From an uncultured Clostridia bacterium (GTDB lineage Bacteria; Bacillota; Clostridia; TANB77; CAG-508): DNA of 64,000 bases. The DNA lies in NCBI GenBank assembly GCA_947626885.1, contig CANQTX010000004.1, forward strand, positions 1,735 to 65,734, given 5' to 3'. The notes under the pieces were generated by a model. That model did not search any database. It saw nothing but the letters and a program-made list of their open reading frames with translations, and had not been told where the DNA came from. Below are positions 15,524-45,696 of the stretch, piece after piece (the first letter of the stretch is position 1; the number at the start of each line of letters is the position of its first letter). Both the position numbers and the translations under genes were made by a program.

Positions 15524-15599
15524 GCCTTCTTAGCTCAGTAGGTAGAGCGCATCCATGGTAAGGATGAGGTCGCCGGTTCGATTCCGGCAGTAGGCTCCA
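15524..15599 (+). tRNA. tRNA-Thr(GGT)
   Basis: Cloverleaf with acceptor GCCTTCT/AGTAGGC (one U-U pair), D arm GCTC-AGTAGGTA-GAGC, anticodon arm CATCC-ATGGTAA-GGATG, T arm GCCGG-TTCGATT-CCGGC, and encoded CCA. Confidence 0.96.
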
Positions 15600-16105: not shown

Positions 16106-17035
16106 ATGTTTATTGGAGTAGGAGAAAACAGCAGCACAAAATGCACAATGAAATTTGGCACACATAATGGAATATTTCATTGTGATGAGGTTCTTGCCAT
16201 GGCAGCACTTATAATTGCATACGGGAATACTAAAATATATGTGGTGCGGACAAGAAACCCTGATAAGTTGAATGAACTCGATATCGTAATTGATATTGGA
16301 GGTGGAAAGTTCGATCACCATATGCCAGGTTTTAATGTATGCAGACCCACAGGCGAGAAATATGCTAGTGCGGGACTGGTATGGAGAGAGTTTGCAGAAG
16401 AAGCTATAAAGAATATTATGACCAAAGAAGGGATATCTATCAATGAGGACGAAATCAAGGCAATCAAAGAACAAATTGACAGAGAATTTATCATTCCAGT
16501 AGATATGGAAGACAATGGTGAGAAGATTAGCAACCATACATTTAGCTTTATTTCGAAATTTCTTCCGTCGTGGCTGGAAACTCCGAATTATGACGATGCT
16601 TTCAGCAGAGTCCTGGCAATTGTGGTTGATATTCTAGAAGCAATCATTAAAGATAAGATTGTACAAGTTGCTACTAAAAAAGAGCTACAAAAAAGATATG
16701 ACTTCATCAATGATGGAATTTTGGAAATTCCTGCACAGACAATGCCATGGCTCGAAGATGTTGTAAGCTATAACGAAAGTCATGGATACAGAGTGAAGTT
16801 CATAATCTTTCCGTATCCTGCAGGAGGCTGGGCAGCACAAAGTGTTCCGCCATCAATCGAAAAGAAATTTGAACAGCTTGTTTCTTTTCCTAAGGAATGG
16901 GCTGGAGGCAATGAAAAAACTTTGCCTGCGATTTCTGGAATAAAGGATGCAATCTTCTGTCACAATGGATGTTTCTTTGTAAGAGCTAAAAGTAAAGATG
17001 GTATCATTAAAATGTGCAAAATTGCTATGAGCTAA
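16106..17035 (+). CDS. MYG1/UPF0160 family metal-dependent hydrolase (exonuclease)
   Basis: THNGIFHCDEVLA, VVRTR, DIVIDIGG, FDHH, SAGLVW, FPKEWAG, FCHNGCF. RBS AAGGAGG; promoter TTGCAG-17-TATAAT at 15962-15990. GC is higher than in the flanks. Confidence 0.92.
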   Translation: MFIGVGENSSTKCTMKFGTHNGIFHCDEVLAMAALIIAYGNTKIYVVRTRNPDKLNELDIVIDIGGGKFDHHMPGFNVCRPTGEKYASAGLVWREFAEEAIKNIMTKEGISINEDEIKAIKEQIDREFIIPVDMEDNGEKISNHTFSFISKFLPSWLETPNYDDAFSRVLAIVVDILEAIIKDKIVQVATKKELQKRYDFINDGILEIPAQTMPWLEDVVSYNESHGYRVKFIIFPYPAGGWAAQSVPPSIEKKFEQLVSFPKEWAGGNEKTLPAISGIKDAIFCHNGCFFVRAKSKDGIIKMCKIAMS

Positions 17036-28845: not shown

Positions 28846-29022
28846 ATGTCAGAAAATAGTAGTCATCAAAAAATACGATGTACAGTTGAAAGTTGTGCCT
28901 TTAATAACTGTGATGCAAGAATGTGTGAGCTACACCAAATAGAAGTGAATGCTTGTCCTGGATGTTCCAGTGGAAAAGCTGAAGATGAATCAATGTGTGG
29001 CAGTTATAAGTGCAAATGTTAA
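28846..29022 (+). CDS. DUF1540 small Cys-rich protein
   Basis: IRCTVESCAFN....C..HQIEV...ESMCGSY pattern; RBS GGAGG. Confidence 0.85.
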   Translation: MSENSSHQKIRCTVESCAFNNCDARMCELHQIEVNACPGCSSGKAEDESMCGSYKCKC

Positions 29023-30159: not shown

Positions 30160-30618
30160 TTAAGAGAAAGAATTATATTGCTTTAAAGCACGTTTTATTT
30201 TCATATCTGCATCTTTTTTGGCTAAATCTTCACGTTTATCGTATAATTTTTTACCTTTACCAATACCAATTTGCACTTTTATTTTATTGCCTTTCACATA
30301 AAGACTTATAGGGACTAAAGAAACTTTTTTTTGCTGTATAATACCGTAGAGTTTATCAATTTCACGTTTATGCAGTAGCAGTTTTCTAGTACGGAGAGGA
30401 TCTTTATTGTAAATATTTCCAAATGTATAAGGACTAATGTGCATTCCATAAATGAAGACCTCACCATTTTTAATATTTACATAACTATCTTTCAAATTAA
30501 CTTTTCCATTACGAATAGATTTAATTTCTGTACCACTTAAAACAATACCAGCCTCAATAGTGTCTTCAATAGAGTAATTATGATAGGCAGTTGGATTTTT
30601 AGCAAATTGTTTTTCCAT
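30160..30618 (-). CDS. smpB: SsrA-binding protein
   Basis: EAGIVLSGTEIKSIR, HISPY, RTRKLLLHKREI, GKGKKLYDKRE. Confidence 0.96.
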   Translation of the reverse strand: MEKQFAKNPTAYHNYSIEDTIEAGIVLSGTEIKSIRNGKVNLKDSYVNIKNGEVFIYGMHISPYTFGNIYNKDPLRTRKLLLHKREIDKLYGIIQQKKVSLVPISLYVKGNKIKVQIGIGKGKKLYDKREDLAKKDADMKIKRALKQYNSFS

Positions 30619-42054: not shown

Positions 42055-44571
42055 TTAAGTTTGGAATCTTCCTTTGGTAAAATTTTTGCCTTCAAAATAT
42101 TGCTTATTTCTTGCAGTTTTAAGAATATTTTGAATATCTTCTAGAGATTCTTCTAAAATATCAATGCGAATAGCACTCACAGATGTATTTTTAAAAGGAA
42201 TAGAAGTAATTTTACTATTATAAATTGTAGTAATTGTAGAAGTATGATCAATATATACAGGAAAATCATAATACATTCTATCTCTTAAATATAAATTATT
42301 TGAAGATAAACATTGCTTGTCACATTCTTTATAACAATGATTACTTTTTCCTAAATAACAATAGCGATTTGTCATTACAGGTGTTCTACCATAAACAATA
42401 AGTTCTGCTGGCAAGGAAGCATGCTCTACTAATTTTTTTATTTCCGGACCAGAAAGCTCTGGAGAAATTGTAAAACATGTTAACCCAAAGAACTTTAGAG
42501 TATCAATTGTATATGGATTATATACATTTAAATTAAAATTACCAATAAGTTCTAAGCCAAATTTTTTCAAAATATCGATTTGTGATAGATGAGATATGAC
42601 AAACCCTTTGATTTTAGGTAAGAAGGAAGAAAAATTTGTATTTGATTGATTTTTTGCATTTTTTATAGCTATACAATAATAATCATAAAGCTTATTTAAA
42701 AGTGGTATCTGACTATCTTGCAAAATATGCGGCATATAAATATACGTATCAAATTGATTTGTAAGTTCAATTAAAATCTTTTCATATCGTGGTGATAAGA
42801 AAAATTTTAAAGGAATATACAATTTATCAATATTTTTAAGATTCGTATATAAATAATTTTCATGAAGTATATTTAATAAAAGTGTAATAGACGGTATTTT
42901 CATATCTATATTAGAATGCATAGATGGTACAGAATGATTTAGTGGTGATGAGATATCCTTTTGCGTTAGCTGATGTGAAATTTTTCCTTTTAGTAATTGT
43001 TCTAGTCCTATTAAAGCATTTCTCCTTACATCATTTAATATACTCATTTTAGGGATAAATACATTTGGATCCAATTCAATTTCTAAATGTTTAAACACAA
43101 ATTCTGTATTTCCTGTTTTAGAAAGCTGTTTTATAATTGTTTCTTCTGAAATAGGTTGATTGATTGCCTTTTCTGGTAAAATATTTATTGTTTCTGTATA
43201 AGTAAGATCTTGATAAACCCCTTTATTAGACCACACAGTAAAAGTGATAGGCATATTTTCTTTTATAATTATTTTTCCATGTAAAGGAATCTTAATCCAA
43301 TTTTTTTCCTCTTTAAAAGTGGGAGAAATTACTTTAGAGAGTTCTTTGCTCTCAATTTTATAAATTTTATTACCGGTAAATATTTTTCCTTTTATTCTGC
43401 CTATTGTAGCGATTGCGTCTTTATTTAATTTTGAGAAATTTTGATTATCTAACATAAGCTCAGAAATAGTATAGTGTTCATTATTAATAGAAATTTTATC
43501 TCCCAAAGTAAGAGAATTTTCAAGTTTTAATTGAATATAACCTTTCTTTGGATTAAAGTGGCGCACAGTACCTAAATAAATACCCATATGATTGGGCTTT
43601 TCTGAAAAAATAAGATTTTTATTAGGCGAAGAAGTAATATGACCAGTAGAAAAACCTCCTCTATTGAATGCTAGTAATAAAGCTTCTTTATCAGATAAAC
43701 TAGTATTTTCATCTATTTCATCTAGTTTTGAGAGAATTTTTTTTCTTATAGTTTCATTGTCTAAATGTATATTTTTTGTTACAAAATCAATATATTTTCT
43801 ATATATTTTTGTAACAACGCCAACATAAGTAGGAGACTTCATACGACCTTCTATTTTAAAGGAATCGATTCCCAGTTTAATTAATGCAGGTAAGTATTCT
43901 ATTAAACATACATCACGAGGACTTAATAAATAACCTTTATCAATAGAAATTCTATCTGAAGAGCAAAGTTCATAAGGTAATCTACAAGGTTGTGCACAAA
44001 GACCACGGTTACCAGAGCGGCCACCAATCATGCTGGACAATAAACATTGCCCTGAATAAGAGATACAAAGAGCACCATGAATAAACATCTCTAATTCTAT
44101 GGCAGTATTTTGACGAATATATCGGATTTCTTCTAAAGAAAGTTCACGCGATAAAACAATTCTTGATATCCCCATTTTTTCTAATTGTGTAACACCAATA
44201 AGATTATGTACCGTCATTTGTGTACTTGCATGAATACAAATTTCTGGATAGTTTTCTAATAAGTACTTAGCGAGTCCTAGGTCCTGTATAATAATAGCAT
44301 CAACTCCCATATTATAAGCGTCAATAGCAAGATTTACAGCCTCTTCAAATTCTTGATTTTTTATTAAAGTATTTAATGTTAGATGTACAGAAACATTTCG
44401 TAATTTTGCATAAGCAATAGCTTCTTTTAATTGTGTGAGATGAAAATTATTTGCATTAGCCCTTGCATTAAATAAAGAAGCTCCTAAGTATACACTATCA
44501 GCGCCATTTTGCACAGCTGCTTTTAAGCACTCAAAATCTCCAACAGGAGAAAGCAATTCTGGTTTTTTCAT
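42055..44571 (-). CDS. U32 family 'peptidase' with DUF3656 (RlhA-like rRNA hydroxylation protein)
   Basis: PELLSPVG, GADSVYLG, HASTQM, HGALCISYSGQC, NRGLCAQPCR, KIEGRMK. Promoter TTGCTT-17-TATAAT on the - strand at 44602-44630. Confidence 0.9.
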   Translation of the reverse strand: MKKPELLSPVGDFECLKAAVQNGADSVYLGASLFNARANANNFHLTQLKEAIAYAKLRNVSVHLTLNTLIKNQEFEEAVNLAIDAYNMGVDAIIIQDLGLAKYLLENYPEICIHASTQMTVHNLIGVTQLEKMGISRIVLSRELSLEEIRYIRQNTAIELEMFIHGALCISYSGQCLLSSMIGGRSGNRGLCAQPCRLPYELCSSDRISIDKGYLLSPRDVCLIEYLPALIKLGIDSFKIEGRMKSPTYVGVVTKIYRKYIDFVTKNIHLDNETIRKKILSKLDEIDENTSLSDKEALLLAFNRGGFSTGHITSSPNKNLIFSEKPNHMGIYLGTVRHFNPKKGYIQLKLENSLTLGDKISINNEHYTISELMLDNQNFSKLNKDAIATIGRIKGKIFTGNKIYKIESKELSKVISPTFKEEKNWIKIPLHGKIIIKENMPITFTVWSNKGVYQDLTYTETINILPEKAINQPISEETIIKQLSKTGNTEFVFKHLEIELDPNVFIPKMSILNDVRRNALIGLEQLLKGKISHQLTQKDISSPLNHSVPSMHSNIDMKIPSITLLLNILHENYLYTNLKNIDKLYIPLKFFLSPRYEKILIELTNQFDTYIYMPHILQDSQIPLLNKLYDYYCIAIKNAKNQSNTNFSSFLPKIKGFVISHLSQIDILKKFGLELIGNFNLNVYNPYTIDTLKFFGLTCFTISPELSGPEIKKLVEHASLPAELIVYGRTPVMTNRYCYLGKSNHCYKECDKQCLSSNNLYLRDRMYYDFPVYIDHTSTITTIYNSKITSIPFKNTSVSAIRIDILEESLEDIQNILKTARNKQYFEGKNFTKGRFQT

Positions 44572-44664
44572 AAAAAATAGTATCCTTTTTTATTTTTTAA
44601 TATTATATCATTTTCCATAATCAGAAGCAAATTAAAAAAATTATCCTGAAAATAATTAAAAAGC

Positions 44665-44693
44665 TTGACAAACTTTGAAAATGGTTATACAAT
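44665..44693 (+). promoter_or_regulatory. SigA promoter of the structured small transcript
   Basis: TTGACA-17nt-TACAAT. Confidence 0.75.
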
Positions 44694-44764
44694 AATTCCA
44701 CCATTTGAAACTCATAAGAGATGGTTTTAAATGAGGTTCTGAGAAAAGGAGGTGTAACGCAGCT

Positions 44765-44860
44765 ATGGTAAGACATTCGATCAAATTCTCGAAACCTCAG
44801 TGCTTATGGTCTGACTTCACACGCCGTGATGTTAAGGCTACATCTTCGAACGAGAGATAA
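44765..44860 (+). CDS. 31-aa peptide MVRHSIKFSKPQCLWSDFTRRDVKATSSNER
   Basis: Perfect RBS AGGAGGTG at 44747-44754, 10 nt before the ATG; below the ORF-track cutoff. Confidence 0.5.
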   Translation: MVRHSIKFSKPQCLWSDFTRRDVKATSSNER

Positions 44861-44941
44861 GACAGGGCAAAGGAAATCTTTTCGGAGATGATTTCCCCAT
44901 GAGGGGAAAAAAGGCAATTTGAACTAATTGCTTTTGCTTTT

Positions 44942-44990
44942 ACCGGTAGGGGTGTATATGAATATATGCATGTCTGCCGGTTTTCATTTT
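44942..44990 (+). terminator. Intrinsic terminator of the small transcript
   Basis: ACCGGTAGG-G-GTGTATAT / ATATGCAT-G-TCTGCCGGT followed by TTTCATTTT. Confidence 0.75.
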
Positions 44991-45093
44991 ATAATATTTT
45001 TACATAATATCATAACAAGATATTCACTTCAAATATAGCTTTTATTTTGAAAAAAGATTGTATTGATTAATAAAAAATACAAATAATATTAGC

Positions 45094-45696
45094 ATGAATC
45101 AGATATTAATAACGAATTTAAAAAAACAACATAAGTTGATATTTAAAATCCAATTATTTATATCCATTATAGCAATTATTGCGATAGTAATATATTTATA
45201 TAGAGATTATTATCAATCAGAAAATCTTGAGTATTTATCCAAAATCATTAATAAAAACATGCAAATAGCTTCTTTATATCAAGTTAAAAAACAAAGTAAA
45301 GAAGAAAGTGCTTATATGGGAAAAATTACGATTCCAAAAATAAACTTAGAATATGTTATTTTTAAAGAATTTAATGAAGAATTATTAAAAATTGCGCCTT
45401 GTAAGTTTTATGGTGTAGGAATAGGAGAACAAGGGAATATATGTATTGCAGGACATAATTATAATGACAATCGTTTTTTTGGCAGACTAAATGAATTGCA
45501 AGTGAAAGATGAAATTATACTAACGGACTTAAATCAAAAGGAATATCAGTATACGGTTTTTGATATATTTGAAACAGATGAACATGATACAGAAAGTGTA
45601 TTACGAAAACAGAATAAATATGAATTATCTTTGGTGACATGTAATAATACGAATAAAAAAAGAATTATTGTTAAGGCTTTTGCCAATATAAAATAA
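45094..45696 (+). CDS. Sortase (class D-like)
   Basis: N-terminal TM, GKITIPKINL, IAGHNY, LSLVTC and RIIVKA (His/Cys/Arg triad). Confidence 0.9.
   Translation: MNQILITNLKKQHKLIFKIQLFISIIAIIAIVIYLYRDYYQSENLEYLSKIINKNMQIASLYQVKKQSKEESAYMGKITIPKINLEYVIFKEFNEELLKIAPCKFYGVGIGEQGNICIAGHNYNDNRFFGRLNELQVKDEIILTDLNQKEYQYTVFDIFETDEHDTESVLRKQNKYELSLVTCNNTNKKRIIVKAFANIK

Follow-up and report, generated by a model that had tools for sequence, protein, structure and literature searches.

The intergenic region between a U32-family peptidase gene and a sortase gene of an uncultured Clostridia bacterium harbours a candidate small RNA unit (44665-44990, + strand), a transcription unit of about 290 bases that is unusually GC-rich, has many hairpins and is bounded by its own predicted promoter and terminator. 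We tentatively read this element as an independent structured small RNA of ~290 nt, which would be constrained mainly at the RNA level and may also be weakly translated; the likelihood of this reading is put at somewhat below even. It draws on a near-consensus promoter, a strong terminator without an antiterminator, a strand-specific fold, a GC content in the top 0.05% of the window (that is, the entire 64-kb stretch of DNA that was analysed), atypical codons and the lack of a protein family match.

Locus, transcript boundaries and composition

The U32-family peptidase gene (42055-44571, - strand, 838 aa) is divergent from the small RNA unit, while the sortase gene (45094-45696, + strand) lies downstream on the same strand at a distance of 104 nt and is followed by a gene for a GLUG-repeat protein. 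By eye, the U32 peptidase gene is preceded by a promoter-like site with an extended -10 element (TTGCTT 44630-44625, 17-nt spacer, TGaTATAAT 44610-44602, - strand), which is located back-to-back with the promoter of the element. A simple promoter scan missed this site because its -35 box has only three of six matches. Since the U32 gene possesses a promoter-like site of its own, antisense transcription across the element is not required. Between the terminator of the element and the sortase gene only a weak promoter-like site (9/12) was detected. The sortase ORF (ATG 45094, + strand) is devoid of a recognisable Shine-Dalgarno sequence. The window belongs to the core chromosome of a Clostridia-like spore former, and among its genes are those for SpoIIM, SigH, RNase Y and SmpB as well as rimP-nusA-infB-rbfA-truB-rpsO-pnp. 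The smpB gene is located at 30163-30618 (- strand) and a tmRNA gene was found in the 64 kb by neither ARAGORN nor Rfam; ssrA must therefore be located elsewhere in the genome.

The overall GC content of the window is 28%. As proposed in the preliminary description, the element forms a GC island: the GC content in 100-nt steps over 44700-44950 is 38-46%, in comparison with 15-25% in the flanking spacers, and no more than 0.05% of all windows of 100 or 200 nt in the 64 kb attain the maximum of the element. A second GC-rich intergenic island of the window (28846-29019, + strand) is the gene for a 58-aa Cys-rich DUF1540 protein (Pfam E 8.7e-08); it comes with an RBS and a terminator of its own and is a small gene of the ordinary sort, not an RNA. 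The sole coding stretch matching the GC content of the element (about 0.45) is a MYG1/UPF0160 exonuclease-family gene (16106-17032, + strand, 309 aa), a composition that is unusual in a sequence of 28% GC.

The sigma-70-type promoter that had been described as TTGACA-17-TACAAT is present at 44665-44693 (+ strand) with 11/12 matches (TTGACA 44665-44670, TACAAT 44688-44693) and is the top scorer among the 8 promoter-like sites in 44000-45600. The number of such sites is not above chance (shuffle mean 10.0); the promoter stands out by its quality and not by the site count. Transcription start sites are usually found 7 nt past the -10 box, and because of this customary distance we infer a start near A44700. 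At the other end, a strong intrinsic terminator (44942-44990, + strand), likewise anticipated by the preliminary description, was missed by a simple terminator scan and recovered by folding. It consists of a 40-nt stem-loop (44942-44981; -24.2 kcal/mol, z -5.7, 0/300 shuffles as stable), followed by TTTCATTTT, and of the U-rich tail UUUCAUUUU. Neither the folds of truncated transcripts nor a fold with the 3' arm of the terminator blocked revealed an apparent antiterminator. When the 3' arm was blocked, the 5' arm remained essentially unpaired upstream and formed only 3 bp with the 5' end, and the upstream hairpins H1-H6 were unaltered in this fold and in the truncated transcripts. Thus, the unit should terminate constitutively. 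By prediction, the element has what defines a stand-alone bacterial sRNA gene, namely its own promoter and its own intrinsic terminator round a short intergenic transcript. A hydrophobic ORF of 36 codons with a TTG start (MLLLLPVGVYMNICMSAGFHFIIF…, 44928-45038, + strand) traverses the terminator hairpin; it is probably fortuitous and would be translatable only from read-through transcripts.

RNA structure and coding capacity

The + strand of the unit (44698-44990) folds with -95 kcal/mol and a z-score of -4.95, and none of 200 dinucleotide shuffles was equally stable, whereas the - strand reaches a z-score of -1.92. The body of the + strand transcript without the terminator yields a z-score of -3.45 (0/300 shuffles). 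Moreover, 14 of the 96 pairs of the MFE structure are G-U pairs, which form on the + strand only. The strand contrast and the G-U pairs therefore indicate a structure that is RNA-level and strand-specific and goes beyond DNA palindromes. Being derived from the fold of a single sequence, the z-scores suggest a structured RNA but are not proof of it.

The transcript is predicted to form a row of six simple hairpins upstream of the terminator (H1-H6, + strand), which give z-scores of -2.4 to -3.7 when each is tested against its own shuffles. H1 (44702-44733, z -3.3) has a 10-bp outer stem, a 3-bp inner stem and the loop AAGAG. Its outer pairing, CATTTGAAAC (44702-44711) with GTTTTAAATG (44724-44733), comprises 10 pairs including one G-U, and 2/300 shuffles were as stable. 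H2 (44732-44799, z -2.45; 7/300 shuffles as stable), which overlaps H1 by 2 nt, has a 14-nt outer stem round the RBS and the start codon. The two arms of this stem, TGAGGTTCTGAGAA (44732-44745) and TTCTCGAAACCTCA (44786-44799), are 86% complementary, with 12 Watson-Crick pairs, one G-U pair and one mismatch. H3 extends from 44807 to 44840 (z -2.4). H4 (44841-44890) combines a 14-bp stem with a purine-rich apical loop of 21 nt (GAUAAGACAGGGCAAAGGAAA, 44856-44876). H5 (44892-44909) is the compact hairpin UUUCCCC-AUGA-GGGGAAA and H6 (44910-44935) has a 10-bp stem. An alternative pairing of 44872-44883 with 44885-44896 competes with H4 and H5 and leaves the terminator untouched. The prediction contains neither a long-range helix nor a pseudoknot, the latter being beyond the folding tools employed. 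Folding thus recovered the 5' hairpin and the 14-nt stem with one mismatch that had been noticed in the sequence beforehand, and the further hairpins and the structured 3' region of that description are present as well.

The Shine-Dalgarno sequence AGGAGGTG (44747-44754, + strand) forms together with the three preceding A residues the stretch AAAGGAGGTG, which matches the complement of the 16S 3' tail over 10 nt. According to the ensemble unpaired probabilities, G48-G49 of the Shine-Dalgarno sequence are predicted to be open and A50-G54 to be paired in H2. The sequence ends 10 nt ahead of the ATG at 44765, from which an ORF of 31 codons plus stop (MVRHSIKFSKPQCLWSDFTRRDVKATSSNER, 44765-44860, + strand) extends into the apical loop of H4. 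The coordinates and the translation given in the preliminary description for the RBS, the ATG and the ORF are correct. The motif GGAGG occurs 51 times in the window, and in 16 cases it precedes an ORF of at least 60 aa with a spacing of 4-13 nt. The spacing of 12 nt between GGAGG and the ATG of the element lies within this range and is therefore acceptable for translation.

The codons of the ORF tell a different story from its RBS. The ORF (GC3 0.47, CAI-like index 0.36) lies outside the range of the 43 long ORFs of the window (GC3 mean 0.16, maximum 0.33; CAI-like index minimum 0.50), and codon usage as extreme was found in none of 566 thirty-codon windows taken from these 43 ORFs. The encoded peptide of 31 residues is basic and hydrophilic, contains one Cys and has no membrane segment or hydrophobic stretch, and no homologue was found among proteins of 22-72 residues. 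Furthermore, the ~130 nt past the stop codon equal the ORF in GC content and structure. Consequently, of the translationally gated micropeptide that had been proposed, the RBS is real and its spacing acceptable, whereas the codon usage, the missing homologue and the 130 nt of hairpins past the stop speak against it. Selection does not seem to act chiefly on the 31-codon ORF. A missed protein gene, the commonest trivial outcome of surveys for GC-rich intergenic regions, does not apply because the longest stop-free stretch in any frame of the element spans 63 codons.

Searches for relatives and the slot in other Clostridia

The element does not correspond to a known RNA family, in agreement with the earlier statement that it matches no tRNA, tmRNA, RNase P, SRP, T-box or riboswitch. 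With Rfam 15 at the gathering score, the only match in the whole window was tRNA-Thr (15524-15596), and the element reached the family threshold of none of the T-boxes, riboswitches, 6S, SRP, tmRNA and RNase P. At E<=10, the 551 nt from 44550 to 45100 gave three chance-level matches (CRISPR-DR34, U6 and STnc150) that scored 11-16 bits against thresholds of 35-60. ARAGORN detected no tmRNA. The stretch ACAGGGCAAAGG seems to us to resemble the c-di-GMP-I riboswitch, a likeness that was rejected as it is unsupported by Rfam at E<=10. A type I toxin-antitoxin locus was also discarded: the peptide is basic and hydrophilic, and there is no convincing antisense unit (- strand z -1.92). At the protein level, Pfam searches with the 11 stop-free frames of the element gave no meaningful match, the sole hit being DUF3775 (E 0.23; 11.8 bits vs a cut-off of 27). 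The 41-aa frame of the + strand and the 60-aa frame of the - strand, considered as possible spurious ORF calls, had no candidates in the protein collections. The 63-aa frame of the - strand had one match among 1.84 billion representatives, a repeat protein of 1284 aa aligned through 5 repeat copies over 25 residues, which was judged to be a chance match amplified by the repeats and not a homologue.

Neither blastn nor nhmmer found a second copy of the element in the window (the next blastn match covers 19 nt, E 0.21), and phage and plasmid collections contained no match. For comparison, related loci were gathered from a genome collection using the U32 peptidase as an anchor, and the 96 stretches that matched were reduced to 73 loci. 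U32 identity in these loci does not exceed 53% for the best segment and is about 37-45% when full-length matches are considered; the source species is therefore not among them. An nhmmer search with the element against the 73 loci (1.17 Mb) returned 23 rows at E<=100, of which the best had an E of 2.4. A search of the window and the 73 loci with a covariance model (R1, 239 nt) that combined the lone sequence with its MFE structure retrieved only the element itself, the next match having an E of 6.2. Thus, the search for paralogues and relatives suggested in the preliminary description yielded no copy in the 64 kb and no homologue in the related loci, and its proposal of a new ncRNA class is not established: several covarying members are needed to make a class, and a second member was found neither in the window nor in phages, plasmids or the 73 loci. 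In the collections searched, the several homologues with covarying pairs that define a structured ncRNA class are lacking. An RNAduplex screen for targets among 56 start regions of the window gave no significant candidate. The lowest duplex, with rimP (-40.2 kcal/mol), is long and loopy, as the duplexes are in general, and 0.6% of 1120 shuffled targets were as low; it is not significant because 56 tests were made.

The top rows of the nhmmer search are the 5' ends of DUF2344 (PF10105) genes in four loci (L025, L026, L028 and L030), and on visual inspection its three frames faintly resembled the DUF2344 N-terminus when the element was compared with it. However, a DUF2344 pseudogene was rejected on the results of tblastn, a profile search and a frameshift-tolerant alignment. 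There was no DUF2344 match at the element among the tblastn matches listed. The profile was built from 120 proteins that belong to a single subfamily and share at least 59% identity with the query. In a search of 4225 six-frame pieces with it, the pieces of the element had E>=99 and the piece with the 31-codon ORF was absent. The frameshift-tolerant alignment scored 14.6 bits vs 12.0 +/- 1.8 in 1401 genomic windows, with 9% of these reaching the score of the element, and 226.6 bits in the positive control.

In relatives, the position beside the U32 gene serves as a slot for small genes. A GC-rich island abuts the U32 start in 9 of the 14 closer loci, and in 12 of the 73 loci (L007, L008, L012, L013, L014, L015, L020, L023, L029, L057, L067 and L068) the slot holds, divergent from the U32 gene, a conserved gene for a Cys/Gly-rich transmembrane micro-protein of 50-62 aa (e.g. 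L029:4212-4385 and L057:9722-9949, both - strand). In L003 and L054, the upstream sequence is too short to judge the slot. The micro-protein has an invariant hydrophobic core (…DSEILFFIIIFLLLFTNCGCGCGRGCC) and no Pfam or NCBIfam match, and its gene comes with a strong RBS and a terminator of its own. The sequence upstream of the micro-protein gene (…CATACTATA…) resembles, as we presume, the -10 boxes of sporulation sigma factors. Beyond the slot, L057 and L029 carry large surface proteins and no sortase. The micro-protein genes and the element have in common the slot, the orientation, the layout of promoter, RBS, small ORF and terminator, and a similar GC island. In contrast, there is no detectable DNA or protein relationship between them, and the ORF of the element encodes a hydrophilic peptide with one Cys and without a membrane segment. 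A decayed copy of the Cys-rich gene was rejected as well: neither an nhmmer profile nor hmmsearch gave a match at the element, and the alignment was at control level. In a frameshift-tolerant alignment, the element scored 14.5 bits against the Cys-rich peptide profile, a value that 37% of the genomic windows equalled or exceeded and that compares with 136.5 bits for the positive control.

Competing interpretations and known systems

If the element is a small RNA gene, RNA polymerase with the housekeeping sigma factor would start at ~44700, the transcript would fold into the six successive hairpins during its synthesis, and the unregulated intrinsic terminator would end it near 44985-44990, giving a stable RNA of ~290 nt. 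Selection would act mainly on the RNA, as the GC content, the hairpin stability and the strand specificity span both the ORF and the 130 nt beyond it. The RNA might act in trans via its few open purine-rich segments, which are the half-exposed AAAGG in H2 and the 21-nt loop of H4 with GGGCAAAGGAAA; these could base-pair with RNA rich in pyrimidines or recruit an RNA-binding protein. Low-level translation of the embedded 31-codon ORF is possible, and the element would then be a dual-function RNA. What counts against the small RNA reading is that it concerns a single sequence without a homologue, that the architecture is a simple row of hairpins, that a perfect Shine-Dalgarno sequence precedes a suitably spaced ATG and that the slot of 12 relatives houses a small-protein gene.

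The last two points are also what a small mRNA would predict, in which H2 gates the RBS of the basic, hydrophilic 31-residue peptide and the 3' hairpins only stabilise the message: AGGAGGTG lies 10 nt before the ATG with a GGAGG spacing (12 nt) in the range of 4-13 nt, the RBS is half sequestered within the 14-nt stem, and the relatives use the slot for a micro-protein. We nevertheless regard this message as unlikely, as the codon usage is beyond that of every gene segment in the window, neither a homologue among proteins of 22-72 residues nor a Pfam match was found, and the 3' untranslated part exceeds the ORF in length while matching it in GC content and structure. Moreover, a frame of 31 codons is unremarkable for a sequence of this composition; by a rough estimate made without a tool, the chance of 30 stop-free codons is ~0.18. 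The small gene of the relatives would also fit a functionless relic, i.e. a decayed small gene, a pseudogene fragment or foreign DNA that retains a promoter, an RBS and a terminator, and so would the orphan status of the element in every search and the faint by-eye likeness to the DUF2344 N-terminus. Here, too, our confidence is low: both candidate ancestors, DUF2344 and the Cys-rich peptide, fail against the controls, nhmmer and hmmsearch are without a match at the element, and unselected DNA in a genome of 28% GC should presumably not keep 41-48% GC and strand-specific stems.

Still less probable is that the unit is the 5' leader of the sortase/GLUG-protein operon (45094 onward), acting as a riboswitch or attenuator in which some signal causes the terminator to be bypassed. 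Its location on the strand of the sortase gene, 104 nt ahead of the start of that gene, would suit a leader, as would the finding of no more than a weak promoter-like site (9/12) between the terminator and the sortase gene. However, the terminator has no competing structure, neither a known aptamer nor a T-box appears even at E<=10, and in the related loci inspected the U32-adjacent slot precedes other genes and no sortase. As for a divergent member of a known RNA family missed by the Rfam models, the source lineage is distant from sequenced species (U32 matches about 37-53% identical), with no specific candidate; we consider this very improbable given that Rfam at the gathering score yields tRNA-Thr only, that the three matches at E<=10 are at chance level and that ARAGORN reports no tmRNA. 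The small RNA reading can be extended to a bolder proposal, which we hold to be doubtful, namely that the element is the first representative of a lineage-specific structured RNA, possibly a regulator and micro-peptide message in one, residing in the slot that relatives use for a Cys-rich membrane micro-protein. If this were true, a small coding gene would have been replaced by, or turned into, an RNA-level gene in an uncultured lineage of spore-forming Clostridia.

A real small RNA at this locus would add an unclassified, well-delimited member to the small RNAs of a poorly studied and very AT-rich Clostridia lineage, and the coordinates are sharp enough for direct testing. Furthermore, the contrast with the micro-protein of the relatives would provide a concrete locus for studying the mutual replacement of small coding genes and small RNA genes. 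Both SR1 and raiA, two RNAs to which the element can be compared, are among the Rfam families. CsrB/RsmZ-type sponges, another possible comparison, display many GGA motifs in hairpin loops; the element has only two exposed AAGGA motifs, one inside H2 and one in the H4 apical loop, and no csrA gene was present among the 55 window ORFs scanned. Leaders that control a terminator, such as riboswitches, T-boxes and attenuators, resemble the element in that they precede a gene of the same strand and end with an intrinsic terminator. In contrast to these leaders, the element has no competing antiterminator, known aptamer or T-box signature.

GC-IGR surveys search the long GC-rich intergenic regions of AT-rich genomes for structured ncRNAs (PMC11109978; PMC6429828, PMC8632094, PMC8723152). 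The element shares the signature of their candidates, a long intergenic region with a GC content far above an AT-rich background. One survey of 4714 regions assigned 427 to an unnamed bin, 607 to a low-ranking bin and 2948 to known ORFs (PMC11109978). With a single representative (fewer than 5, and without a consensus model), the element would fall into the 'unnamed' or 'low-ranking' bin of this scheme, and its wider importance is limited because it is one unreplicated sequence and such surveys leave hundreds of candidates with a single or few members unnamed (PMC11109978). Neither sortase nor U32 is named in PMC11109978 or PMC8632094. The raiA motif RNA, or ModT, is a structured ncRNA of Bacillota including Clostridioides difficile (PMC10861870, PMC11706538). 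It is reported to be conserved in >2,500 species, whereas no second copy of the element was found and it has no Rfam match.

The dual-function small RNA SR1/SR1P of Bacillus subtilis comes from another low-GC Gram-positive bacterium (PMC3526287). SR1P is conserved across species, in contrast to the ORF and the RNA described here, which have no homologue found and no Rfam match at E<=10. SR1/SR1P-type RNAs and the element as predicted here are alike in that each is an independent, structured transcript of a few hundred nt that has its own promoter and terminator and contains an ORF of a few dozen codons.
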